From Oligoflexia bacterium (lineage in GTDB: Bacteria > Bdellovibrionota > UBA1018 > CAIPTA01), in the NCBI GenBank assembly GCA_903867855.1, contig CAIPTA010000181.1, positions 12,038-76,037 on the forward strand: DNA of 64,000 nt, written 5' to 3'. Position numbers and translations under genes: made by a program. Under the pieces are notes generated by a model, which was given only the letters and a program-made list of their open reading frames with translations, ran no database searches and was not told where the DNA came from. Of the stretch, positions 862 through 20,598 are shown piece by piece (position 1 is the first letter of the stretch; every line of letters begins with the position of its first letter).

Positions 862-1575
862 TTAGGGGCCAGGAACGGGGTTCACGATAAAGTTTACGCC
901 GTAGTTTCCTGGGTTGAAGGCCACTTGATGCTGCTTATCATTCGCGCTCGGCGTATAGAGCATATAGCCCATGATGTGCACTGTGGGGGAAATGCATTTG
1001 CCGGTGGTGGTGGGACAAATTGGTACCCACCAGAGCACTAGGCGAAAAGGGCAAAAGCTACTCGTTGTTGTATTTCCTACTTCGTTTGTGCCGCCGCCAG
1101 CCGCGAAGGGCGTTCCCGACCAGGTATTGCACTGAGCGCCAGTGAGAGTGAATCCCTTGGTAGTGGTGGTGCTTTGGTAGTAAACCGCGCCTGCAGTATT
1201 ATACACATCAAAGGCACCCGTCACCGAGGAAGAGTAATAATTTACGGAGCTATTCGAGGCTACTGAAGGCCCGTTATTCGCAGGATTGGGCGCTTGAGCC
1301 GCGCAATCGGTATAGTTGATTAGGCAAGCGAAGGTAGTGCTATTATTGGCGCCCCATAGCGTTTTCTTCCAGCCTGTTGGGTTTTGTAGAATCGACACCA
1401 CATCTCTACGAATCTGATTGGCTTGAAAGCTAATGCTGGAATTAGAATTTGTTTTGTTTAGGTTATCGATCAACTTGAACGAGGTAAGAATCACCACGGA
1501 GCTTAAGCCAACGGCGATCAGGGATTCCACTAGGGTAAAGCCTAAGCTATTTTTTTTCTTCACGGCTAACCTCAA
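862..1575 (-). CDS. type IV pilin-like protein (paralogue A) with C-terminal Cys motif
   Basis: N-terminus MRLAVKKKNSLG|FTLVESLIAVGL is a class-III prepilin leader with Gly-1/Phe+1/Glu+5 and a hydrophobic helix. C-terminus carries CPFRLVLWWVPICPTTTGKC...GY.LY.P...V.FNPGNYGVN, shared with 2902..3564 and 3670..4587. Confidence 0.75.
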   Translation of the reverse strand: MRLAVKKKNSLGFTLVESLIAVGLSSVVILTSFKLIDNLNKTNSNSSISFQANQIRRDVVSILQNPTGWKKTLWGANNSTTFACLINYTDCAAQAPNPANNGPSVASNSSVNYYSSSVTGAFDVYNTAGAVYYQSTTTTKGFTLTGAQCNTWSGTPFAAGGGTNEVGNTTTSSFCPFRLVLWWVPICPTTTGKCISPTVHIMGYMLYTPSANDKQHQVAFNPGNYGVNFIVNPVPGP

Positions 1576-1576
1576 A

Positions 1577-2905
1577 TCAAAGTATTGGGAATTCCGCTCT
1601 CGGTTCCCGAATCACAAAAAAGGTGAGTAAACAAAAAAGTATGGGCCAAAGCCAAAAGGCCTTGAGTATATATTTGTTTTCTACTCTCAGATAAAGTTCG
1701 CCAAGGCCCCAAATAAAGGCAAAGAGGGGTAAATAGGCCACTCGATCCGCCACGAGGCTTAGCTTCATGAAGGGCACATAGAAGAGGCCGCTGATGGAAA
1801 GGTAGGTAGCAAAGGTAACGCTTAATAACCAATAGCGCTTTGCGAGCCCCCAGATAAAGAGGCCGAGTGAGGCTACGGAAAGTAAGAGAAATAGCCAATT
1901 GAGTCCGGCTAACGTTTGCTTTGTGCGCACGGGGATTTCCGTGAAGCTTAACGATCGCAAGAGATAGTAGCTAAAGGTGCGACCCTCCACTTCCAGTTTT
2001 TCTTTCATGGCTTCAGGGCTCTTGGCGAACTGATCCTGAAGATATCTCTCTTCATGTTTGATGGGGGCTGGGGGAGCTTCGGCTTTCACCGCTATTGGAG
2101 TAGTAAGGATTTTTTTACTTTTACGAATCTTGGCCGTCTTCTTGATGGGCGCTTCTTTCGTTGGGGCCGCCACAAGTTCAGCGGGTTTTGGGGGATTCGT
2201 TAAAAAGTAGCTCGCACTATGCTCCGCTTCCGTGGGGTAATCATAGATTCCATGGGAAACGAGGAAGGCAGAATAGACGCTGAATAGGAGTGCAGGCGAG
2301 GAGTGAAGTAAACTTTTTTTCCAACCCAAAATTTTCGCATTCTTAAAAATTTCCATTGGCGCCAAGAAAAAAGCATAGCTTTTAGTGATCATCATGGCCA
2401 CAAGCAGAGCATTGCTGCGAAGGGGGGAGGCGGGCTTTTCTTCTAAAAAATCGCGCAGCCAAAAAGCGAAGAAAAGCGTGGAAAGCAGGCAGCCGATTTG
2501 GCTAATCCAAGTTACGGCCTCCACGGTGATGGGGCTTAGCCAAAAAAGGCTCGCAGAGAAGAGGGCGGCGGCAAAGGATTTTTTTCGTAAAAAAAGAAAT
2601 AAACAAAATCCATTTGCCCAGTGAAGCAGAATGAGTGCGCTGCGATAGAGAGCGAAATTTAAATGGAAGCCTTGGTATAGCAGCCAGTAAACGCTATGAG
2701 TGAGCGGCCAAGCCTTGGTATTCATTTGGCCGCGATACCAGTATTGCAGTGGGTTCTGGCTACTTTTTATGAAGCTATTGCCGAAGATTAGCGAGTTGTC
2801 ATCTACAAAGGCGCCATAGTGCAGGCTTGGAAAATACAATAGGAACAGAAGCGCGAGAGCGATTCCGGGCACAAAGTATTTTTGTTTAACCAGGGCTTCC
2901 ATCAT
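1577..2905 (-). CDS. polytopic inner-membrane protein, GT-C/PMT-like putative glycosyltransferase
   Basis: 442 aa with many hydrophobic helices and an acidic DD motif in the first loop (AFVDDNSLIF). A Lys/Pro/Ala-rich linker is followed by about 4 more TM helices. The gene abuts pilin paralogue A (1575/1577) and overlaps paralogue B by 4 nt, so it is probably co-transcribed with both. Confidence 0.35.
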   Translation of the reverse strand: MMEALVKQKYFVPGIALALLFLLYFPSLHYGAFVDDNSLIFGNSFIKSSQNPLQYWYRGQMNTKAWPLTHSVYWLLYQGFHLNFALYRSALILLHWANGFCLFLFLRKKSFAAALFSASLFWLSPITVEAVTWISQIGCLLSTLFFAFWLRDFLEEKPASPLRSNALLVAMMITKSYAFFLAPMEIFKNAKILGWKKSLLHSSPALLFSVYSAFLVSHGIYDYPTEAEHSASYFLTNPPKPAELVAAPTKEAPIKKTAKIRKSKKILTTPIAVKAEAPPAPIKHEERYLQDQFAKSPEAMKEKLEVEGRTFSYYLLRSLSFTEIPVRTKQTLAGLNWLFLLLSVASLGLFIWGLAKRYWLLSVTFATYLSISGLFYVPFMKLSLVADRVAYLPLFAFIWGLGELYLRVENKYILKAFWLWPILFCLLTFFVIREPRAEFPIL

Positions 2906-3564
2906 GGGTTTGGTGTGAGCACCAAATTCACTCCGTAGTTATTTGGATTAAAGGGCACTTTCTGGGCGGTATGGGAGGTGGGGGGATTATAAAGAGTATA
3001 GCCGAATACGTGCACCAGTGGATTTACGCAGCTCCCCACTGTGGTGGGGCAAATGGGCACCCACCAGAGCACCAATCGAAAGGGGCATTGCATATTCGGA
3101 GTAACAGTGGAAAAGCCTGTGGCGCCAGCGGTCGAAACCCCATTGGCCCAGTTAGTGCCGCATTGCTGGCCGCTGATATTAAAACCGCGAGCACCATCGG
3201 TACTGATGGGATAATAATTCACTCCAGAAGTATCATACACATCGAAAACGCCAGCCGGAGAGGCACTGGAAAATGTTCCCGATGCGGGGCCGTTCGTTTT
3301 ATAGGCGCTACAATCGGTGCCATTTTTCACGCAGGCAAGCGCGGCATTTCCTTTGATGGTATGTCGCCATGCGGTGAGGTTGGAAAGCAGGATGGAGATT
3401 TGCTTGCGAAAGGCATCAGCCTGAGCGGAGTTCGCGGCAGCAGTGGAGGATTTGTTCATGGTGGTATTGAGCGACATCATGCCGAGTGCTGCAATAGACG
3501 AAAGAGAAACAGCCACCATGAATTCAATGAGGGTAAACCCCAATTTATTGGAAATTAATTTCAT
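2902..3564 (-). CDS. type IV pilin-like protein (paralogue B)
   Basis: MKLISNKLG|FTLIEFMVAVSLSS is a canonical prepilin N-terminus with G|FTLIE. C-terminus carries CPFRLVLWWVPICPTTVGSC...GYTLYNP...VPFNPNNYGVN. Confidence 0.75.
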   Translation of the reverse strand: MKLISNKLGFTLIEFMVAVSLSSIAALGMMSLNTTMNKSSTAAANSAQADAFRKQISILLSNLTAWRHTIKGNAALACVKNGTDCSAYKTNGPASGTFSSASPAGVFDVYDTSGVNYYPISTDGARGFNISGQQCGTNWANGVSTAGATGFSTVTPNMQCPFRLVLWWVPICPTTVGSCVNPLVHVFGYTLYNPPTSHTAQKVPFNPNNYGVNLVLTPNP

Positions 3565-3669
3565 TTCTCCCCACTTTGCCCCAGAGTATAATTATAAACT
3601 AAGTTAAAGGGAATAACCAAGAGCGTGTCCTCGGGGAGACAGTCTGGCTGGAAACCGTGTAAAGTGGCG

Positions 3670-4587
3670 ATGGAGTTTGCCGTGAACAGAAAATACAGAA
3701 AAAATGAATTTGGCTTCGCGCTGCCTATCGTATTGGTGATGATCGCCTTGATCGCCGTGGTTACGGTGTATATGATCAGTCGCTCCACGGCGAGTTCGAA
3801 ACAATCAATTTATACGAATGGAACATTTCAAGGATCGAATATTATTACCCAGGTAACGAACCTAATTCAGGATAGTACCGCTTGGGATCATACCTTATAT
3901 GCCAACGCAGCGATGAGTTGCCTGAAGTTTAGTCCGGGAGTGGATTGCTATGCCGCCTCGACTGCGAACGGCAGCACCTATGTGCAGAATGTTACCTATC
4001 CCACCACAATGACTGGCTCTTTCGTGCTGTACGATCGCTCCGGTAAAATTTTTTATGATTCAACGGCCGCCACGAATGGATTCGACTATACGGGGCAGCC
4101 TTGCCCGTATACCACGTCAAATAGTTATAGCAATTCGTCGAATACAAAAACCTACGGTGATTCCAGCGGACAGTGCCCCTTTCGATTAGTGCTATGGTGG
4201 CAACCTCATTGCACACCAGCCTCTTCTCCCTGCAACTTAAATAATGCCCACCTCGATTATTATACGATTTATGGCTACTTGCTCTTTTCGCCAGTGGGAA
4301 ATAATACGTATAAAGTTCCATTTCGTCCGGAGAACTATAAAATCAGCATTAAAAAATCCACTACGGCAGCGAATGCTAACTATTGTTGTGCGATTGAGTG
4401 TAAGCGCACAACAGCCGATGCGGGCACGGCCTATGTAACCAAAACCATCGTGCAATCAGCAAATTGTTATCCGGGATCCTCGGAAGTGCCTTCCTCGATT
4501 TGTGGAGATGTATTTGCCGCGGATCCAGATGAGTGGGCCTATGATGGGAACGTAGTGACTAATTCTGGCACTTGTGCGGGCGGGTAA
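3670..4587 (+). CDS. pilin-like protein paralogue C (atypical, lacks Glu+5)
   Basis: Reading from the internal ATG at 3670 gives MEFAVNRKYRKNEFG|FALPIVLVMIALIAV: a short basic leader, Gly-Phe, then a hydrophobic helix with Ile at +5. A GTG at 3625 is an alternative start. Shares CPFRLVLWWQPHCTPASSPC...IYGYLLFSP...YKVPFRPENY with paralogues A and B. Confidence 0.55.
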   Translation: MEFAVNRKYRKNEFGFALPIVLVMIALIAVVTVYMISRSTASSKQSIYTNGTFQGSNIITQVTNLIQDSTAWDHTLYANAAMSCLKFSPGVDCYAASTANGSTYVQNVTYPTTMTGSFVLYDRSGKIFYDSTAATNGFDYTGQPCPYTTSNSYSNSSNTKTYGDSSGQCPFRLVLWWQPHCTPASSPCNLNNAHLDYYTIYGYLLFSPVGNNTYKVPFRPENYKISIKKSTTAANANYCCAIECKRTTADAGTAYVTKTIVQSANCYPGSSEVPSSICGDVFAADPDEWAYDGNVVTNSGTCAGG

Positions 4588-4676: not shown

Positions 4677-5642
4677 ATGATTAAAAATATCAGAATTTTG
4701 TTTTTGTTTCTTTTTTCGGTTCAAGCAGGTGCAACGAGCTATGTGGGAATTGGAACGGCGTCTCCGGCGTCATTACTCACGCTTTACACAACGACAAATA
4801 TTCAGGGGCTAGAGATTGATGGAACATCTACCGCAACTAATACGGTGAAAAGCCTTTTTCTTGCGAACGTTACTGCCGGATCTTATAATTCCATCACCCA
4901 AACCGGGGATCAAGGAATAATCTACATGGGGACGACGATAGGTACTCCCAAGGGTTTTTTCATCGCGCCTTGGGCTAGTGCCACCACAGGTCTTCGGCTC
5001 GATACTAATGGCAACGTCGGGATCGGCACGACCTCTACGTACGGAGCTCTAACTGTAGCTAATGGTACAGATCATACGCTTAATGTGCGTGGGGATCCCG
5101 TCTCATTCGGTCTGCCTGCTGGTCTTCTTGGGCCGATTCTTCAAGGCGTAAATAGCGCTCAAACTGTCCAAGAGCCGATCACCTTGGAGGGATCAACAAT
5201 TAACTTGATGGGTGGAAGTGTGGGTATAGGTACCAGTAGCCCCTCTTATGCTTTAGATGTAACAGGCACCATCAGAGCTACAAATCTAATTCTAACTTCT
5301 GATCGCAGAGCAAAGAAAAATATAAGTAGTTTAGATGAAACAGAATCGTTGGAAAAATTGAGCCGATTGAATCCAGTTTCCTTTGAATGGAAAAACTCTG
5401 GCGAGGCTGATCTTGGTATTATCGCGCAGGAGCTTGCGGAGGTTTATCCTGAACTAGTTTTGAAGGATCAACAGGGCGCGCTTTCAATTCGTTCCACTTC
5501 TCTCATTGCTCCGCTCATTGCCTCAGTGAAAAAATTAAAGAGCGACAATGAACTATTGCGAGAAGAAAACGGAAAACAGAAATCGCGCCTCGATGAGTTA
5601 GAGAAAAAATTTAACGCTCTAGCAGCAAAAATAGAAAAGTAA
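4677..5642 (+). CDS. secreted tail-fibre-like (mosaic adhesive trimer-like) protein with C-terminal peptidase S74 intramolecular-chaperone domain
   Basis: Signal peptide MIKNIRILFLFLFSVQAGA. Repeated VGIGT..P..L.V fibre motifs. C-terminal block SDRRAKKNISSLDE...LSRLNPVSFEWK...DLGIIAQELAEVYPELV...SLIAPLIASVKKLKSDNELLREEN matches the auto-cleaving chaperone of phage tail fibres and endosialidases. Confidence 0.8.
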   Translation: MIKNIRILFLFLFSVQAGATSYVGIGTASPASLLTLYTTTNIQGLEIDGTSTATNTVKSLFLANVTAGSYNSITQTGDQGIIYMGTTIGTPKGFFIAPWASATTGLRLDTNGNVGIGTTSTYGALTVANGTDHTLNVRGDPVSFGLPAGLLGPILQGVNSAQTVQEPITLEGSTINLMGGSVGIGTSSPSYALDVTGTIRATNLILTSDRRAKKNISSLDETESLEKLSRLNPVSFEWKNSGEADLGIIAQELAEVYPELVLKDQQGALSIRSTSLIAPLIASVKKLKSDNELLREENGKQKSRLDELEKKFNALAAKIEK

Positions 5643-5646
5643 AACT

Positions 5647-6486
5647 ATGCTTCTTTCCCTGCTTATCACATTACTATCTAGCACTTTTGCTCATGCCACT
5701 GCTTGTGCGACCAGTGGTTTGATGACAGTCGCCTCTGGCGTTAATACTGTTTGCCAAAACAGTGTTTTAGGAACTCCTCAGGGATCATCTCTCGGCACTT
5801 GTGCAGGAACAACAGCTGGAACCACCACTTATTCGGCGGGTACCTACAAAGTATGTGATGGCTCTAATTGGTACGACATGAAGGGGAGTTCCATTGGCTC
5901 TTGTGTGGGAACTACAGCGGGCACATTGTCATACGTCTCAAATGCCTTTCAGTTTTGTGATGGTACTAATTGGTATAGTTTAACCTCTGGTACTGTGACG
6001 ATTAACTTAACCTCTACTTCCTGTGATGGAGTTTATTGTAAATATGTGAGCAGTGGAGATGCTGATGCAAATGGATATTGCATCAGTAATGGGTATGCCT
6101 CCGCTGTTTCTTCTACCTCAGGCGGGAACGGTTGCAACGGCTGTTATTATGTCGATTGGGTGTCCAATGCTTGGAACACTCCATATCACAATTGCAACAG
6201 CTGTAATCAAATGGCTACGGTTACTTGCCAAAGTGGAACTCCAAGTATTCCTTGTGGCGAAGCAATTTACTCCACAGGTGTTGTAAGTAACTATATCGAT
6301 GGAACTTGGGGGTCGATTAATGCGGGCTCTTGTCCGTACCCGAGTATGTATCAATTCCAAAACCTTGGCAGTCAGAGCACGGATCAAGGAGTGAAGCCTT
6401 TAGTCCGTTGTGGATATTGTGGTCCAGGGTCGGTGAACAACCCCTCAGTGACTTGCCTGAATAACTCAAATTGTGTGGCTCATTAA
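5647..6486 (+). CDS. secreted Cys-rich protein with internal duplication
   Basis: Signal peptide MLLSLLITLLSSTFAHA and more than 25 Cys. The segment C.GTTAGT..Y......CDG.NWY occurs twice in tandem. It starts 5 nt after the fibre gene stop. Confidence 0.6.
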   Translation: MLLSLLITLLSSTFAHATACATSGLMTVASGVNTVCQNSVLGTPQGSSLGTCAGTTAGTTTYSAGTYKVCDGSNWYDMKGSSIGSCVGTTAGTLSYVSNAFQFCDGTNWYSLTSGTVTINLTSTSCDGVYCKYVSSGDADANGYCISNGYASAVSSTSGGNGCNGCYYVDWVSNAWNTPYHNCNSCNQMATVTCQSGTPSIPCGEAIYSTGVVSNYIDGTWGSINAGSCPYPSMYQFQNLGSQSTDQGVKPLVRCGYCGPGSVNNPSVTCLNNSNCVAH

Positions 6487-6679: not shown

Positions 6680-7519
6680 TTACAATATTTTATGGATAGA
6701 TTTTACTGGCGCTAGCTTCCGCTTCAGCAGCGCAGGCACCGGGCAGAGAAGGATACTCATCCAAACCGCCACGCTAAAATAGAGCGACATCCAAAGAAAT
6801 TCATAGCCCCAATCTTTCACATCGTGAGTGACCATCCAGCGCGTGTTGAGATCTTTTATGCCATCCATAAAGCCTAGAAACTGCTTGCCGCTCGCAATAT
6901 CCGCCTGATGACGACTCATGTACATGGGCACATCTACAGTGGCCATATACATCACATACATCGCGCACCCAATGGCACCGAGGATGATCGCTCTACGAAA
7001 CCAGCCTTGAAAGTGTGAGCGAAGATCAAGAAGAGCCAACACGATCAAGAAATAGCTCACTCCCCACAATGATTCCTCCACGCAGTTGCCGATATAATTT
7101 GTGGTCACCACGGCATACCAAGAGCAAATTTCTGCCACACAGATAAGCGGCACAATCATGCGCGCAATTTTGCTCGTGAAATTTGCCTTACTCTCTTGAG
7201 CGAGAAAGGAAAGGAGCTCCGCCCATTCAGCCACGAAACAAAGTTCTGCGATTGTGGCTACAGAGCGGCCCACGAAAACGGAGGAGAGCCAAGTATCAAA
7301 GAGGCAAATGCGCTGCACATCTGCCCTCGGCAGAAGGGAGCGAAAGGCGCAGCCGAAAACATAGGCGCCAGAAAGGAGGAGGAGTTTTTTTGTGGTGGGA
7401 TCCTTTGGGAGGCTTAGGCGGGCCTTTGTCCAAGCGCTACAATTTAGTGCGCTCACACCTACTAGAAAGAGCCACCAAATGGCCACAGGGTTTGAGAGGG
7501 TAATCCAGGAGAGATTCAT
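6680..7519 (-). CDS. hypothetical polytopic membrane protein
   Basis: 279-aa ORF with multiple hydrophobic segments and no recognisable motif. It overlaps the downstream MNT gene start by 4 nt. Confidence 0.45.
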   Translation of the reverse strand: MNLSWITLSNPVAIWWLFLVGVSALNCSAWTKARLSLPKDPTTKKLLLLSGAYVFGCAFRSLLPRADVQRICLFDTWLSSVFVGRSVATIAELCFVAEWAELLSFLAQESKANFTSKIARMIVPLICVAEICSWYAVVTTNYIGNCVEESLWGVSYFLIVLALLDLRSHFQGWFRRAIILGAIGCAMYVMYMATVDVPMYMSRHQADIASGKQFLGFMDGIKDLNTRWMVTHDVKDWGYEFLWMSLYFSVAVWMSILLCPVPALLKRKLAPVKSIHKIL

Positions 7520-7788
7520 TTGGTGAGCCTATAGAAGCATTTACTAAAGAGCCGGATATGTTCGAGCAGTTCTTTGCTTTCAATTTGGGTATAGATCGAG
7601 AGGTCTATTTTATAGGGTAGGAGTAGATCATCTAGCGCGGATTCTATGGCCAAGAGTTCTGAATTTTTTCTAAAGTTAACTTTGGCTCTAGAACCGTAAA
7701 CCAGAACTTCTTCTACATTCGAAAATGCGCTAAAAACATCTTGAATGCTAGCAATGGTTTTTTCGCTGAGGCCAAACTCACTTTTCAT
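7516..7788 (-). CDS. MNT-type minimal nucleotidyltransferase (HI0073-like), catalytic motif degenerate
   Basis: ..LVYGSRAKVNFRKNSELLAIE.. aligns with the HI0073-type G-S-x(9-11)-D-x-D-L motif, but DLD reads EL: one codon shorter and only one acidic residue retained. Overlaps the HEPN partner by 4 nt. Confidence 0.55.
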   Translation of the reverse strand: MKSEFGLSEKTIASIQDVFSAFSNVEEVLVYGSRAKVNFRKNSELLAIESALDDLLLPYKIDLSIYTQIESKELLEHIRLFSKCFYRLTK

Positions 7789-8015
7789 GTATGTAAAAGG
7801 CTACTTAATTTTTGGGAAAGTTTTTCAAACTGGTCGAGATAGGATCCTACTACCTTTTGGATAATATCCTCTGCCGTTGGGCGATTATAGGTATGGGATG
7901 TTTGATTTCTGCTCTTGATCATTTCCATCCAGCAATCTCCGTCGCTCATTTGCTGAAGAGCTACTTTGAAGTTTTGGAAACGCTGCTGCCAGCGAATTTC
8001 TTGTCTCATGATCAC
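7785..8015 (-). CDS. HEPN / nucleotidyltransferase-substrate-binding (HI0074-like) protein, internally shortened
   Basis: N-terminus IRWQQRFQNFKVAL and C-terminal R-x4-H-x-Y HEPN motif (RNQTSHTY) are both present. At 76 aa the protein is far shorter than the family norm (about 120-140 aa), consistent with an in-frame internal deletion. Confidence 0.5.
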   Translation of the reverse strand: MIMRQEIRWQQRFQNFKVALQQMSDGDCWMEMIKSRNQTSHTYNRPTAEDIIQKVVGSYLDQFEKLSQKLSSLLHT

Positions 8016-18276: not shown

Positions 18277-20598
18277 CTACTGTGCCTTTGTTGTTTTGGA
18301 TATGATCGGACTCGTTTGACTATTCCCCAGCGAATCCGTGGCTACTACTTGGAAGTAGTAGGTGCTGTTAGCACTCAATCCATTCACGGTTACTACTTGC
18401 GTGTCGCTCGCAGTGCTTACTTGCACTGTTTGGAGAGACAAGCTTGTAGGGCTCGTTCCAACGGAGACTACTGCGGTAGAAAGTGCTCCGGGTGTTCGCC
18501 AGATGAGAGTGGCTGAGGTGGCTGTTGTTGTGCCATCGAAGCCAAGTATGGTCCATCCAGGAGTGGGATTGGTTCCTGTGCCCGTGCCAGTTCCTGTGCT
18601 GGTTGAAGTTGCTGTGGCAGTTTGAGTTGCTGTAGCAGTTTGAGTTGCCGTAGCAGTTTGCGTGGCTGTGGCCGTCGCGGTATCAGTCGCGGTCACGGTT
18701 TGTGTTGCTGTGGCTGTATCAGTAGCGCTTGCTGTCTGAGTCGCTGTAGCAGTCGCAGTTTGCGTTGCAGTAGCTGTCTGTGTAGCAGTCGCGGTCGCGG
18801 TTTGTGTTGCTGTGGCTGTATCAGTAGCGCTTGCTGTTTGAGTCGCTGTAGCAGTTTGCGTTACTGTGGCTGTCTGAGTCGCAGAAGCAGTTTGGGTAGC
18901 AGTAGCCGTCTGCGTAGCAGTTGCCGTTTGCGTTGCCGTAGCTGTCTGTGTGGCAGTCGCAGTTTGAGTTACTGTAGCTGTCTGTGTGGCAGTCGCAGTA
19001 GCAGTTGAAGTTACTGTTGCTGGTAAAGTGTCCACGTCGATCACTAGGCTATTTTTTTGCGTGCCAACTTGGTCACTTGCCGTAACCATGAAATAGTATT
19101 TGGATCCAGAGGCAAGATTCGAAACTGTGAGAGTGTGATTGGTGGCAAAGCTGGTTTCGTCGATTTCATTTGGAAAATTCACACCATCGATTCCCCATTT
19201 CAACTTGCCTTTGGTGGCAGCTTCTGGAGTTTGCCATACTAAGCTCACGCTGTTGAGTGCACCTTGTCCGGAGAATCCAACGATGTTCCAAACAACAGGG
19301 GCATTTGGTTGGCAATAGGTGATTGCGATTTTACTTGCGGCGCTCCCGGCATTCGCCAAGTGAACTATATCCGTGAGCGCAGTATAAGAATAAGGCTCGG
19401 TGCTTTGATCCACTTTTGCAGAGATGGAATTTGGATCGATCCAATTAGCGGGCCAAGAAAGCTTAAAGTCGTGGTTGATATTTACGCTATCAGAAATAGA
19501 GCTACCGATCTGTGCGAGACCCTTTGTATAGTCATCTTCAAAATTAAATAGCACGCCGCCAGTTTTCTGCACCATTTCGAAATATCCGTAGCCAAGGGAG
19601 GGATAGATGCAAGCAGCCTTCATGCTATTGTGAATGGCAAGATCCGCTTTTGTTACGTGAACGATGGCGTGGGTGGTTACAGGCATATCGCCTTTTAGGG
19701 CTTTTACAGCGGCAAATGTGGTATCGGTATTAATGCCAGTTTTATCATAGTAGTTCTTTTTTACATTCGATTCATAGGCCACATCGCAGCGAACAGGCAT
19801 GCCGAGCGCGTGCATCTCTGCATCGCTTGGGAAATAGGAGCCGATCTCGTTTTCGTCGCTCATAAATAAAATAGATAGAGCTGCATCAGGACGAAAAAAA
19901 CCTTTCGCTTGGTTTTCTTTCGCGTTTTTTGTAACTGCATAATAGAGGCTATAGAAGAGGGCCTCGCCGCTACCGTCATAATCGACGATCTTCATGCCGG
20001 ATTGAAAAATTTGCTGTAGGTCTTTTGCAATTTGCTGTGAGTTAAGTTTTTTATTGCTCAAGACATACGGAATATCTTTGGATGGTGAGTAGAGCACGCC
20101 GCGATGTGCGGAGTTTGCTTGGCCGAGCAGCACAGCATAGTTGATGTCTGAATCAGAGGGAAGCTCGCGCACCATGCTCTCAATATTGCTGGCAATGCGC
20201 TGCCAATTGGTTTCCATGCTACCCGAAGTATCCATCACAAAAAGAATATCTAGCTTGCGCGTGCAAGTGGCCGCATTTTGCTCAAAGTGATCCGTATTAC
20301 ATGTTGTGGGTGGCGAAGTGGGCTGCGGAGGATTTACGATCACCACGGGAGGCGATGGGGGCACTACAACGGGGGTGGGTATGTGTTCGATGGCCTTACA
20401 TTCCGCCACGATATTGGGATATTTTTTGAGGAGCTCGGCGCTGATTTTTCCTTTTTCATAGGCATCTTCCAGGCGATCACAGATCTCCCGATTGGGGTGA
20501 ACGGCGCAAGCGGCAAGAAGGCCTGATATAAGGAAAAATCCAGTAAATTTAATAAGATACCGGATTATTGTAGTGCTATTTGAATTTGTGCTACCCAT
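18277..20598 (-). CDS. lipoprotein with von Willebrand factor A domain, (TATATQ)n linker and fibronectin-III-like domains
   Basis: Lipobox ..ISGLLAAC. VWA MIDAS motif LDILFVMDTSGSME. About 140 aa of T-A-T-A-T-Q hexapeptide repeats. Flanking beta-rich segments (..LTVSNLASGSKYYFMV..; ..TVNGLSANSTYYFQVVATD..) are typical of FN3. Confidence 0.7.
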   Translation of the reverse strand: MGSTNSNSTTIIRYLIKFTGFFLISGLLAACAVHPNREICDRLEDAYEKGKISAELLKKYPNIVAECKAIEHIPTPVVVPPSPPVVIVNPPQPTSPPTTCNTDHFEQNAATCTRKLDILFVMDTSGSMETNWQRIASNIESMVRELPSDSDINYAVLLGQANSAHRGVLYSPSKDIPYVLSNKKLNSQQIAKDLQQIFQSGMKIVDYDGSGEALFYSLYYAVTKNAKENQAKGFFRPDAALSILFMSDENEIGSYFPSDAEMHALGMPVRCDVAYESNVKKNYYDKTGINTDTTFAAVKALKGDMPVTTHAIVHVTKADLAIHNSMKAACIYPSLGYGYFEMVQKTGGVLFNFEDDYTKGLAQIGSSISDSVNINHDFKLSWPANWIDPNSISAKVDQSTEPYSYTALTDIVHLANAGSAASKIAITYCQPNAPVVWNIVGFSGQGALNSVSLVWQTPEAATKGKLKWGIDGVNFPNEIDETSFATNHTLTVSNLASGSKYYFMVTASDQVGTQKNSLVIDVDTLPATVTSTATATATQTATVTQTATATQTATATQTATATQTATATQTASATQTATVTQTATATQTASATDTATATQTATATATQTATATQTATATATQTASATDTATATQTVTATDTATATATQTATATQTATATQTATATSTSTGTGTGTGTNPTPGWTILGFDGTTTATSATLIWRTPGALSTAVVSVGTSPTSLSLQTVQVSTASDTQVVTVNGLSANSTYYFQVVATDSLGNSQTSPIISKTTKAQ
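18575..19022. repeat. tandem 18-bp coding repeat (about 23 units) encoding (TATATQ)n in the VWA lipoprotein
   Basis: Near-identical 18-nt units (gcagtttgagttgctgta-like) run across about 450 bp. The opposite-strand Cys/Ser-rich ORFs (18622..19008 etc.) are artefacts of this repeat. Confidence 0.8.

Follow-up and report, generated by a model that had tools for sequence, protein, structure and literature searches.

The way in which predatory bacteria recognise so many kinds of prey is still an open question. Fibres termed MAT (mosaic adhesive trimer) are known from Bdellovibrio bacteriovorus, for which built-in variable tips have been proposed (Caulton et al. 2024, PMC10769870); the same work left open what the conserved parts of the MAT fibres bind, and it makes no mention of operons, partner genes or Cys-rich proteins. 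The locus considered here, from a Bdellovibrionota-type bacterium, brings these matters down to a single gene: what is the secreted, Cys-rich protein that is encoded directly behind a short phage-like fibre gene, and does it act together with the fibre? An earlier note on this DNA had viewed it as a protein of no recognised family and as a possible companion of the fibre, either a lectin-like or receptor-binding partner, a fibre tip or an assembly factor. The window, i.e. the whole stretch of 64,000 nucleotides that was analysed, is chromosomal (it encodes ClpP, ClpX, Dus, LeuRS and an SNF2 helicase) and gave no rRNA or tRNA matches. The closest named relatives of its ClpX, at 74-81% identity, belong to MAGs labelled Bacteriovoracia, Bdellovibrionota, Oligoflexia and Bdellovibrionales; judged by ClpX, the source is an uncultured Bdellovibrionota-type bacterium. 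The features of the locus are collected in Table 1.

Table 1. Features of the fibre/partner locus, with positions counted in the window
Feature	Position	Strand	Details
Pilin-like gene	3625..4587	+	89 nt upstream of the fibre gene; database start 3670 (305 aa)
Short phage-like S74 fibre	4677..5642	+	321 aa; Peptidase_S74 (PF13884) 2.4e-16 over aa 208-262
Final 18 residues of the mature fibre (predicted)	5244..5297	+	SYALDVTGTIRATNLILT; new C-terminus upon predicted self-cleavage; proposed docking site
S74 chaperone-protease domain	5298..5639	+	Starts at the catalytic S208 of SDRRAK (SDxxxK), ends in a coiled coil
Secreted Cys-rich fibre partner	5647..6486	+	ORF, 279 aa, 20 Cys
Predicted signal peptide	5647..5697	+	aa 1-17, cleavage between AHA and T, read from the sequence by eye
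Unit 1 (degenerate)	5698..5787	+	aa 18-47; C20 and C36 kept; CQNSVL replaces CDGxxW
Unit 2	5788..5889	+	aa 48-81, SLGTCAGTTAGTTTYSAGTYKVCDGSNWYDMKGS; unit HMM 2.9e-17
Unit 3	5890..5991	+	aa 82-115, SIGSCVGTTAGTLSYVSNAFQFCDGTNWYSLTSG; unit HMM 1.4e-17
Middle Cys-rich domain	6004..6231	+	aa ~120-195; C126, C131, C145, C163, C166, C183, C186 and C194 conserved
C-terminal Cys-rich tail	6232..6483	+	aa 196-279, 6 Cys

The reading frame itself is a real gene, as had been assumed: the identical protein is called as a gene in several independent assemblies, and an ENA metagenome contig holds a 99%-identical copy with 2 differences from the target. Its N-terminus (MLLSLLITLLSSTFAHA, followed by T at the predicted cleavage point) resembles a signal peptide in having an AxA cleavage site, with neither a basic n-region nor a lipobox, and points to a secreted product. 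The protein is rich in S, G, T and N, and its mature part contains 20 Cys in 262 residues (7%), fewer than the more than 25 in about 260 that the earlier note had counted. These residues are distributed in even numbers along the successive segments of the protein (2+2+2+8+6), and within the repeat units they are spaced 16-18 residues apart. Because all 20 fall in even numbers per segment, the protein is probably fully disulfide-bonded, outside the cytoplasm; within the units, the pairs to be expected are C20-C36, C52-C70 and C86-C104. The same even numbers and the same spacing within the units fit disulfides rather than metal clusters, and on these grounds, together with the signal peptide and the Cys content of 7%, a metallothionein-like or metal-binding identity was rejected.

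The internal repeat reported for this protein is genuine, the best 34-residue self-match having 18 identities, whereas 200 shuffled sequences gave 9.8 on average and 13 at most. The motif given for it, C.GTTAGT..Y......CDG.NWY, is likewise present, with a spacer of seven residues rather than six (C.GTTAGT..Y.{7}CDG.NWY). The tandem duplication described in the earlier note is not peculiar to this gene: its two clear copies are the second and third units of a family module. A HMMER scan over 1.84 billion representatives returned at least 114 matching protein clusters, and nearly all of these 114 matches run through target residues ~45-120. The recurring unit is ~34 aa long and contains two Cys, with the consensus sCsGTtAGT..Y....FCDGTNWy.MkG, and there are three such units per module. 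When a unit HMM was built from the 114 matches and then used to count units, exactly three were found in 86 of the 109 proteins with detected units and two in the other 23, many of which are truncated or carry a decayed unit; more than three were found in none of the 109. Six Cys are conserved in an alignment of 59 modules (four invariant, two at at least 90%), and each of the three unit positions exhibits a consensus of its own.

The target can be placed within this scheme. Its units 2 and 3 are canonical, sharing 16 of 34 residues with each other and 57% identity at the DNA level, and unit 1 aligns with unit 1 of 58 relatives with both Cys in register, lacking DGxxW and matching the unit HMM weakly. 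The protein is therefore a divergent member of a CDGTNW triple-repeat family, with a decayed first unit. A recent, gene-specific duplication was rejected, since the DNA identity is as low as 57% and each copy fits the consensus of its own position across the family, which argues for the repeat being an ancestral domain. In AF2 models, both of the full-length protein and of the isolated module, units 2 and 3 reach a pLDDT of >90 and are formed by four short β-strands each. Most of the 114 relatives proceed directly from a signal peptide to the module, the signal peptide ending 1-3 residues before the first Cys, and in the target the signal peptide is predicted to end at A17 and the first Cys of the module is C20. 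The CDGxNW motif does not recur elsewhere in the six-frame translation of the window.

The view that the protein matches no recognised family was borne out. Pfam and NCBIfam provided no family for the target, and PHROGs gave no match below E=0.78; seven canonical relatives have no match in NCBIfam, and no Pfam model lies over the module in 112 members. A PDB sequence search with the target returned nothing, as did PDB profile searches with the module and with the middle domain, and Foldseek comparison of the AF2 models of the whole protein and of the module to the PDB found no neighbour with E <0.1. In BFVD, one marginal and unnamed match was obtained (A0A451ED92, E 0.02, TMq 0.59). The partner protein gave no tblastn match in 50,697 GenBank phage records, and nothing related to it was found in IMG/VR. 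Several identities could be rejected from these searches: membership of the Tfa or gp38 sequence families (no PHROG match <0.78, no match in phage records), of a known carbohydrate-binding or lectin family (no curated model, no significant structural match) and a phage structural module (no PHROG family, no relatives in phage records or IMG/VR). A literature search for the motif strings and for partner proteins of MAT fibres yielded nothing relevant. The module family is thus annotated in none of the databases searched (Pfam, NCBIfam, PHROGs and PDB), and neither the family, nor its constancy at three units, nor its association with S74 fibres (see below) appears to have been described in the databases and papers that were searched. 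The module merits a family definition even if the proteins merely act in parallel with the fibres, since none exists in Pfam or NCBIfam.

In the relatives, the module is followed by Lcl_C or DUF1554 domains, LVIVD propellers, RTX, LamG, F5/8-C or cadherin domains, or glycine-rich regions, and members encoded next to a fibre gene carry heads of the BNR propeller, cadherin/Big_9, Lcl_C, RTX and F5/8-C types. The family pattern to be read from these architectures is that of a constant module combined with a swappable extracellular binding head of adhesin type. Four small proteins (P0031, P0083, P0087 and P0089) have C-termini homologous to the middle domain of the target, with 12 invariant columns, and AF2 models this domain with moderate confidence only. 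The tail (aa 196-279) is confined to the target and its 99%-identical copies, P0001 being the only relative that covers it, and its pLDDT is <45. The head of the target consists of these two Cys-rich domains, without a recognisable binding fold.

The upstream gene was correctly taken by the earlier note to be a fibre gene. Its product begins with a signal peptide (aa 1-19), continues into a shaft in which the motif G(N/S)VGIGT occurs three times, and finishes with an intramolecular chaperone or self-cleaving domain of the S74 type, which was aligned with 14 other fibres encoded next to module genes. It matches many PHROG tail-fibre families (best 5e-23), its PDB sequence matches are the ICA domain of MYRF and a phage tail fibre, and relatives of it occur in 180 phage records. 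The combination of a C-terminal S74 domain with SDxxxK, a motif defined in PMC10769870, is that of the S74 subgroup of MAT fibres. Release of the domain is predicted to follow trimerisation of the fibre.

The two genes adjoin each other closely. The stop codon of the fibre gene ends at 5642 and the partner ATG lies at 5647, leaving 4 nt between them, and no terminator-like sites were found between or inside the two genes; from the spacing we infer that they are co-transcribed. The genes downstream of the partner in the window lie on the opposite strand and are convergent with it. Upstream, the pilin-like gene may share an operon with the fibre gene. It has been called as a gene, its N-terminus (..EFGFALPIVLVMIALIAV..) resembles that of a minor pilin without Glu5, it has a weak GspK match, and it is 30-33% identical to two N_methyl pilins of the window, 862-1575(-) and 2902-3564(-), which are its paralogues. 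The tail of the target and the Cys-rich C-terminus of this pilin-like ORF exhibit no similarity. A PilS pilin gene also lies upstream of the fibre/partner pair in locus L029. The data do not support a pilin gene as a fixed member of the cassette: one was seen in the window and L029 only and in none of the other loci, L002 included.

Whether the proximity of fibre and partner genes is peculiar to this genome was addressed by scanning GTDB genomes and JGI metagenomes with the module patterns and by searching the flanks on the contigs of the representatives with a fibre jackhmmer profile. In the window and in 16 independent loci (among them L002-L006, L011, L012, L020-L023, L029-L031 and L034), the module gene is immediately preceded, on its own strand, by an S74 fibre gene; L001 and L036 are copies of the window, L013 is apparently a copy of L004, and L032 is a copy of L031. 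The commonest junction between the two genes is a 4-nt overlap; other junctions range from an overlap that appears to be 35 nt long, where the gene may in truth start further on, to a gap of 78 nt. The linked fibres vary in length from 321 to >1,906 aa, and all of them share the junction GNVGIGT..P...L.V.G...AT...., leading directly into SDxxxK. Their hosts include Pseudobdellovibrionaceae, Bacteriovorax, Bdellovibrionales and uncultured Alphaproteobacteria MAGs, and linked loci come from metagenomes as well. Proteins consisting of the module only (123-137 aa) also exist, and one of these, that of L021 (137 aa), is linked to a fibre gene. The link therefore belongs to the module and not to any particular head. 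Members without an adjacent fibre gene were found in L007, where Micavibrio has three copies in tandem, in L033, which is surrounded by housekeeping genes, and in L014, L018 and L019, so that the module can work without an adjacently encoded fibre. Fibre adjacency is frequent in the family, not universal. The conserved synteny supports the idea of a partner of the fibre that had been put forward for this gene, for which no known family was found and the linkage to S74 fibres is strongly conserved.

Two natural fusions bear on the place that the unit may occupy on a fibre, and they point to different ends of it. The protein of L027 combines in one chain a fibre end (GIGTTSP..LDVNGEVRLGK), one unit and a Cys-rich C-terminus, without an S74 domain, which fits a location of the unit at the tip. 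The fibre of L002 carries one unit at its N-terminal, presumed cell-proximal end, which fits a location at the base or anchor.

A further indication was obtained from the co-variation of the two proteins. For 14 fibre/partner pairs, the pairwise divergence of units 2-3 was compared with that of separate fibre segments by Mantel tests. Only the divergence of the last 18-20 fibre residues ahead of the cleavage site follows that of the module (r 0.46-0.48, p 0.001-0.006; for the last 18, r=0.48 and p about 0.001-0.004); in the same 14 pairs, no such relation is seen for the adjoining shaft (r 0.12-0.13) or for either half of the chaperone domain (r 0.20 and 0.14). With the chaperone domain taken into account, the partial correlation of fibre tip and module amounts to 0.45 (p 0.004). 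As the coding region for the chaperone lies between the tip and the partner gene, simple co-inheritance should affect the chaperone at least as much as the tip. The relationship is reflected in two sequence classes: tips of the class ..KAT(N/D)L(I/L)LT pair with modules having a short first unit, and tips of the class ..KAT.F(I/V)ST pair with modules having a long C(T/S)SP.G first unit. Both tip/module classes are present in Pseudobdellovibrionaceae MAGs, that is, in one bacterial family. The co-variation withstands the removal of any one locus; with three loci left out at once, it drops to r=0.27 (p=0.09). Some class structure is seen in the chaperone domain as well. Drawn from 14 related pairs, the co-variation of the module with the fibre tip is suggestive only.

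These lines of evidence may be joined in a working model, in which the protein is an adaptor or binding head that is synthesised as a chain of its own and docks on the fibre via the triple repeat. This reading is preferred here, tentatively, and is given somewhat less than an even chance of being correct. The surface-fibre cassette of this Bdellovibrionota-type bacterium would then comprise two genes, of which the target is the second. The first gene would provide a phage-derived fibre, presumed to be trimeric, whose C-terminal S74 domain would fold the fibre and then cut itself off at S208. The second gene would be translated just behind the first, and its product exported by means of its own signal peptide. 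The N-terminal module, consisting of three putatively Cys-stapled β-hairpin units, would dock on the fibre, the likeliest site being the neo-C-terminal end ...TIRATNLILT, which would be exposed upon release of the S74 domain. The docked module would present the variable C-terminal part as a ligand-binding head, possibly directed at prey, so that the fibre would be armed by a separate protein, rather than by a tip domain within its own chain. Among the functions listed in the earlier note, a receptor-binding partner or fibre tip fits best, because of the swappable heads of adhesin or lectin type and the co-variation with the C-terminal end of the mature fibre.

The main rival, somewhat unlikely, is that the protein works on its own, as a secreted or surface-bound adhesin or lectin that shares no more with the fibre than its expression and acts in parallel with it on the same target, its repeat binding a glycan or a component of the surface of its own cell and thus serving for retention or presentation. 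The conserved aromatic and Asp/Asn/Thr residues of the unit (Y..FCDGTNWY) recall repeat lectins. The sole structural neighbours, at the top of the Foldseek results for both models, are β-hairpin repeat binders such as clostridial CROPs and choline-binding modules (E 0.16-1, TM 0.15-0.19), yet such matches are non-significant (E >0.1, TM <0.25). The arrangement of some relatives would also suit an independent role: the module is internal or C-terminal in P0002, P0044, P0029 and P0110, it has no adjoining fibre gene in L007 and L033, and the unit in the L002 fibre is at the N-terminus, the end by which MAT fibres are presumed to be fixed to the cell. An independent adhesin nevertheless leaves unexplained why the gene order is fixed, why stop and start overlap, and why the pairing with S74 fibres is near-exclusive in 17 loci, and it offers no reason for a co-variation restricted to the last 18 fibre residues.

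The protein could also serve the fibre in another way, as a maturation, capping or anchoring factor that caps the cleaved end, stabilises the fibre or tethers its base to the envelope or a pilus, without being a receptor-binding head. In favour of this are the location of the gene immediately behind the fibre gene, as for the assembly proteins of phage tail fibres, the existence of module-only members of 123-137 aa, and the pilin-like genes that precede the fibre gene in the window and in L029; the linkage to a pilin is absent in L002. An assembly role, which figured among the earlier suggestions, fits poorly, since S74 fibres possess their own intramolecular chaperone (PMC10769870) and the large, diverse C-terminal domains are typical of adhesins, not of chaperones, and are hard to square with a pure assembly function; nor does the protein match any assembly or chaperone family in PHROGs. 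This explanation is considered improbable. The constant N-terminus and hypervariable C-terminus resemble polymorphic toxin systems, in which the module would be a delivery handle and the C-terminus a payload, but the identifiable C-terminal domains are binding and adhesion folds, with no enzymes or toxins among them, and no conserved small gene of immunity type lies downstream (the downstream genes of the window being convergent, on the opposite strand), so that this reading was rejected as scarcely credible.

Returning to the separately made head that docks on the fibre, a more specific form of this proposal may be considered, which is itself rather doubtful. The triple repeat could be a single-chain, pseudo-threefold plug for the three identical neo-C-termini of a trimeric fibre, which would become accessible only once the S74 chaperone has cut itself off; self-cleavage would thereby license the loading of interchangeable, separately encoded heads, and the cognate tip and module classes would prevent paralogous fibre/head pairs of the same cell from mixing. 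The occurrence of single-unit proteins in some alphaproteobacteria weakens the logic of three units for three chains.

The finding points to a second, unreported layer of recognition, in the form of a widespread, unannotated secreted family which is paired gene by gene with S74 fibres and whose variable domains are of the type that specificity determinants would be expected to have. If the pairing is physical, it would entail a new protein domain as well as a new mechanism for arming a fibre, and the correspondence between tip class and module class would constitute a sequence rule that predicts cognate pairs. It would also provide a modular handle by which predator or phage-like fibres may be retargeted.

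Among known systems, several resemble the module or the cassette in part. Clostridial CROPs and pneumococcal choline-binding repeats are likewise composed of tandem short β-hairpin units in secreted binding proteins, yet they lack Cys staples, have other repeat lengths and vary in copy number, whereas the module is fixed at three. The core of the unit (..G...Y.....(F/Y)xDGTxW) also resembles the short Y..GDGTW or DUF2510-like hairpin motifs of fibre and actinobacterial proteins, a likeness confined to the level of the motif. One family member has a weak match to DUF2510 (E 2e-4, below the gathering threshold), and Cys-free unit-like motifs occur inside the fibre-like protein P0069 and the L002 fibre. 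The DUF2510-like motifs, however, have neither the paired Cys nor the fixed triple arrangement.

In phages, genes for tail-fibre assembly proteins are found directly downstream of the fibre gene, as is the case for Tfa of lambda, Mu and P2 and for gp38 of T4. In the gp37-gp38 system of phages T2 and S16, a monomeric gp38 adhesin sits on the tip of the trimeric fibre and bears the receptor-binding region. The partner gene immediately downstream of the fibre gene is shared by these systems and the cassette. Unlike gp38 and Tfa, the partner described here is chromosomal, exported by a predicted signal peptide and probably disulfide-rich, it accompanies an S74 fibre that is its own chaperone, and it has no similarity to PHROG families. 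Arming a fibre with a separate head is hence already a known idea, while the family and the cassette appear to be undescribed in the databases and literature that were searched.

The closest comparison is with the MAT fibres themselves. Both systems belong to a lineage of predatory bacteria, both rely on phage-like secreted fibres whose C-terminal S74 domain contains SDxxxK, and both combine a conserved presenting part with a diversified binding part, in which folds of the lectin or adhesin type are variable. The window fibre, however, is 321 aa long, compared to about 1,000 aa for the MAT fibres, and the variable part is differently placed: in the MAT fibres it forms the tip of the fibre chain, whereas in the cassette it resides in a separate secreted protein, encoded downstream and equipped with the triple repeat. 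Should the pseudo-threefold plug prove true, the cassette would represent a modular form of prey or surface recognition, distinct from both the built-in tips of the MAT fibres and the gp37/gp38 fibres of phages.

The fibre and the CDGTNW-type unit of its cysteine-rich partner, encoded in the window by two adjacent genes, are joined in a single chain at a locus from another source (L027). In the 3' fragment of this fibre gene (1960-2433), the 'GIGT' end of the fibre runs directly into a single CDGTNW-type unit, which a cysteine-rich C-terminus follows; the fragment lacks the S74 domain (the self-cleaving chaperone). This fragment is the one-chain version of the two-gene arrangement. The fibre gene is apparently split by a gene whose sequence resembles that of an insertion-sequence transposase.

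Unit-like sequences also occur within two other fibre chains. The N-terminal half of the L029 fibre consists of six mini cysteine hairpins of ~18 aa (P.C..NQ.L.FDG.SY.C), which replace the usual shaft. They resemble the unit of the partner in a shorter, related form, set within the fibre chain itself. The single unit that follows the signal peptide of the L002 fibre reads CTNPAGAAGNQMYNADYATMQFCNGSVW, and the same chain carries repeated 'YWRGDGTW' motifs, which resemble the unit core and are devoid of cysteines.

Features of the window and of related loci
Location	Strand	Feature	Remark
L027:1-2433		apparently interrupted fibre gene	putative insertion-sequence transposase gene at 655-1680
L029:1440-2456		complete short S74 fibre, 339 aa	metagenome origin
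L002:3566-5854		fibre of alphaproteobacterial MAG	signal peptide, then one CDGTNW-type unit at start
L007:66-7112		three tandem module-bearing paralogues	Micavibrio sp. UBA6147
L021:1052-3235		module-only partner gene (137 aa) and 588-aa ORF	both on one strand
window 862-1575	-	pilin-like gene 1	paralogue of the two other pilin-like genes
window 1577-2905	-	polytopic membrane protein, 442 aa	among pilin-like genes
window 2902-3564	-	pilin-like gene 2	paralogue of the two other pilin-like genes
window 3625-4587	+	pilin-like gene 3	GspK/PilX-like, without Glu5
window 7516-8015	-	two small overlapping genes	between fibre cassette and Dus gene
window 18277-20598	-	773-aa fn3-containing ORF	overlaps 30-cysteine ORF on opposite strand
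window 18622-19008	+	128-aa ORF, 30 cysteines	antisense to ORF 18277-20598(-)

The module of tandem units is found in further layouts. The L007 paralogues (986, 687 and >434 aa) have no adjacent fibre gene; their host is an epibiotic predator from a different phylum. At L021, the 588-aa ORF begins 3 nt past the module-only gene, and the variable head may be encoded there as a separate gene, or an error in sequencing or assembly may have broken one ORF in two.

Upstream of the window fibre gene, the three pilin-like paralogues share 30-43% identity and a C-terminal 'CPFRLVLWW.P.C' motif; two of the three have N_methyl prepilin motifs, the third being GspK/PilX-like instead. This third gene ends 89 nt ahead of the fibre gene, with which it shares its strand. 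In L029, too, a PilS pilin gene is located upstream of the fibre/partner pair. Type IV pili may be connected with the fibre cassette. The membrane protein encoded among the pilin-like genes gave no family match.

Elsewhere in the window, the two overlapping small genes resemble a toxin-antitoxin pair of the MNT/HEPN-like kind, composed of a nucleotidyltransferase, with a faint Polbeta match, and an NTase substrate-binding protein. The 30-cysteine ORF is in all likelihood spurious.

Of the module's structural neighbours, only the BFVD entry A0A451ED92 scored moderately (E 0.02 and TMq 0.59, at 15% identity across 105 columns). This entry is an unnamed viral protein of 342 aa.
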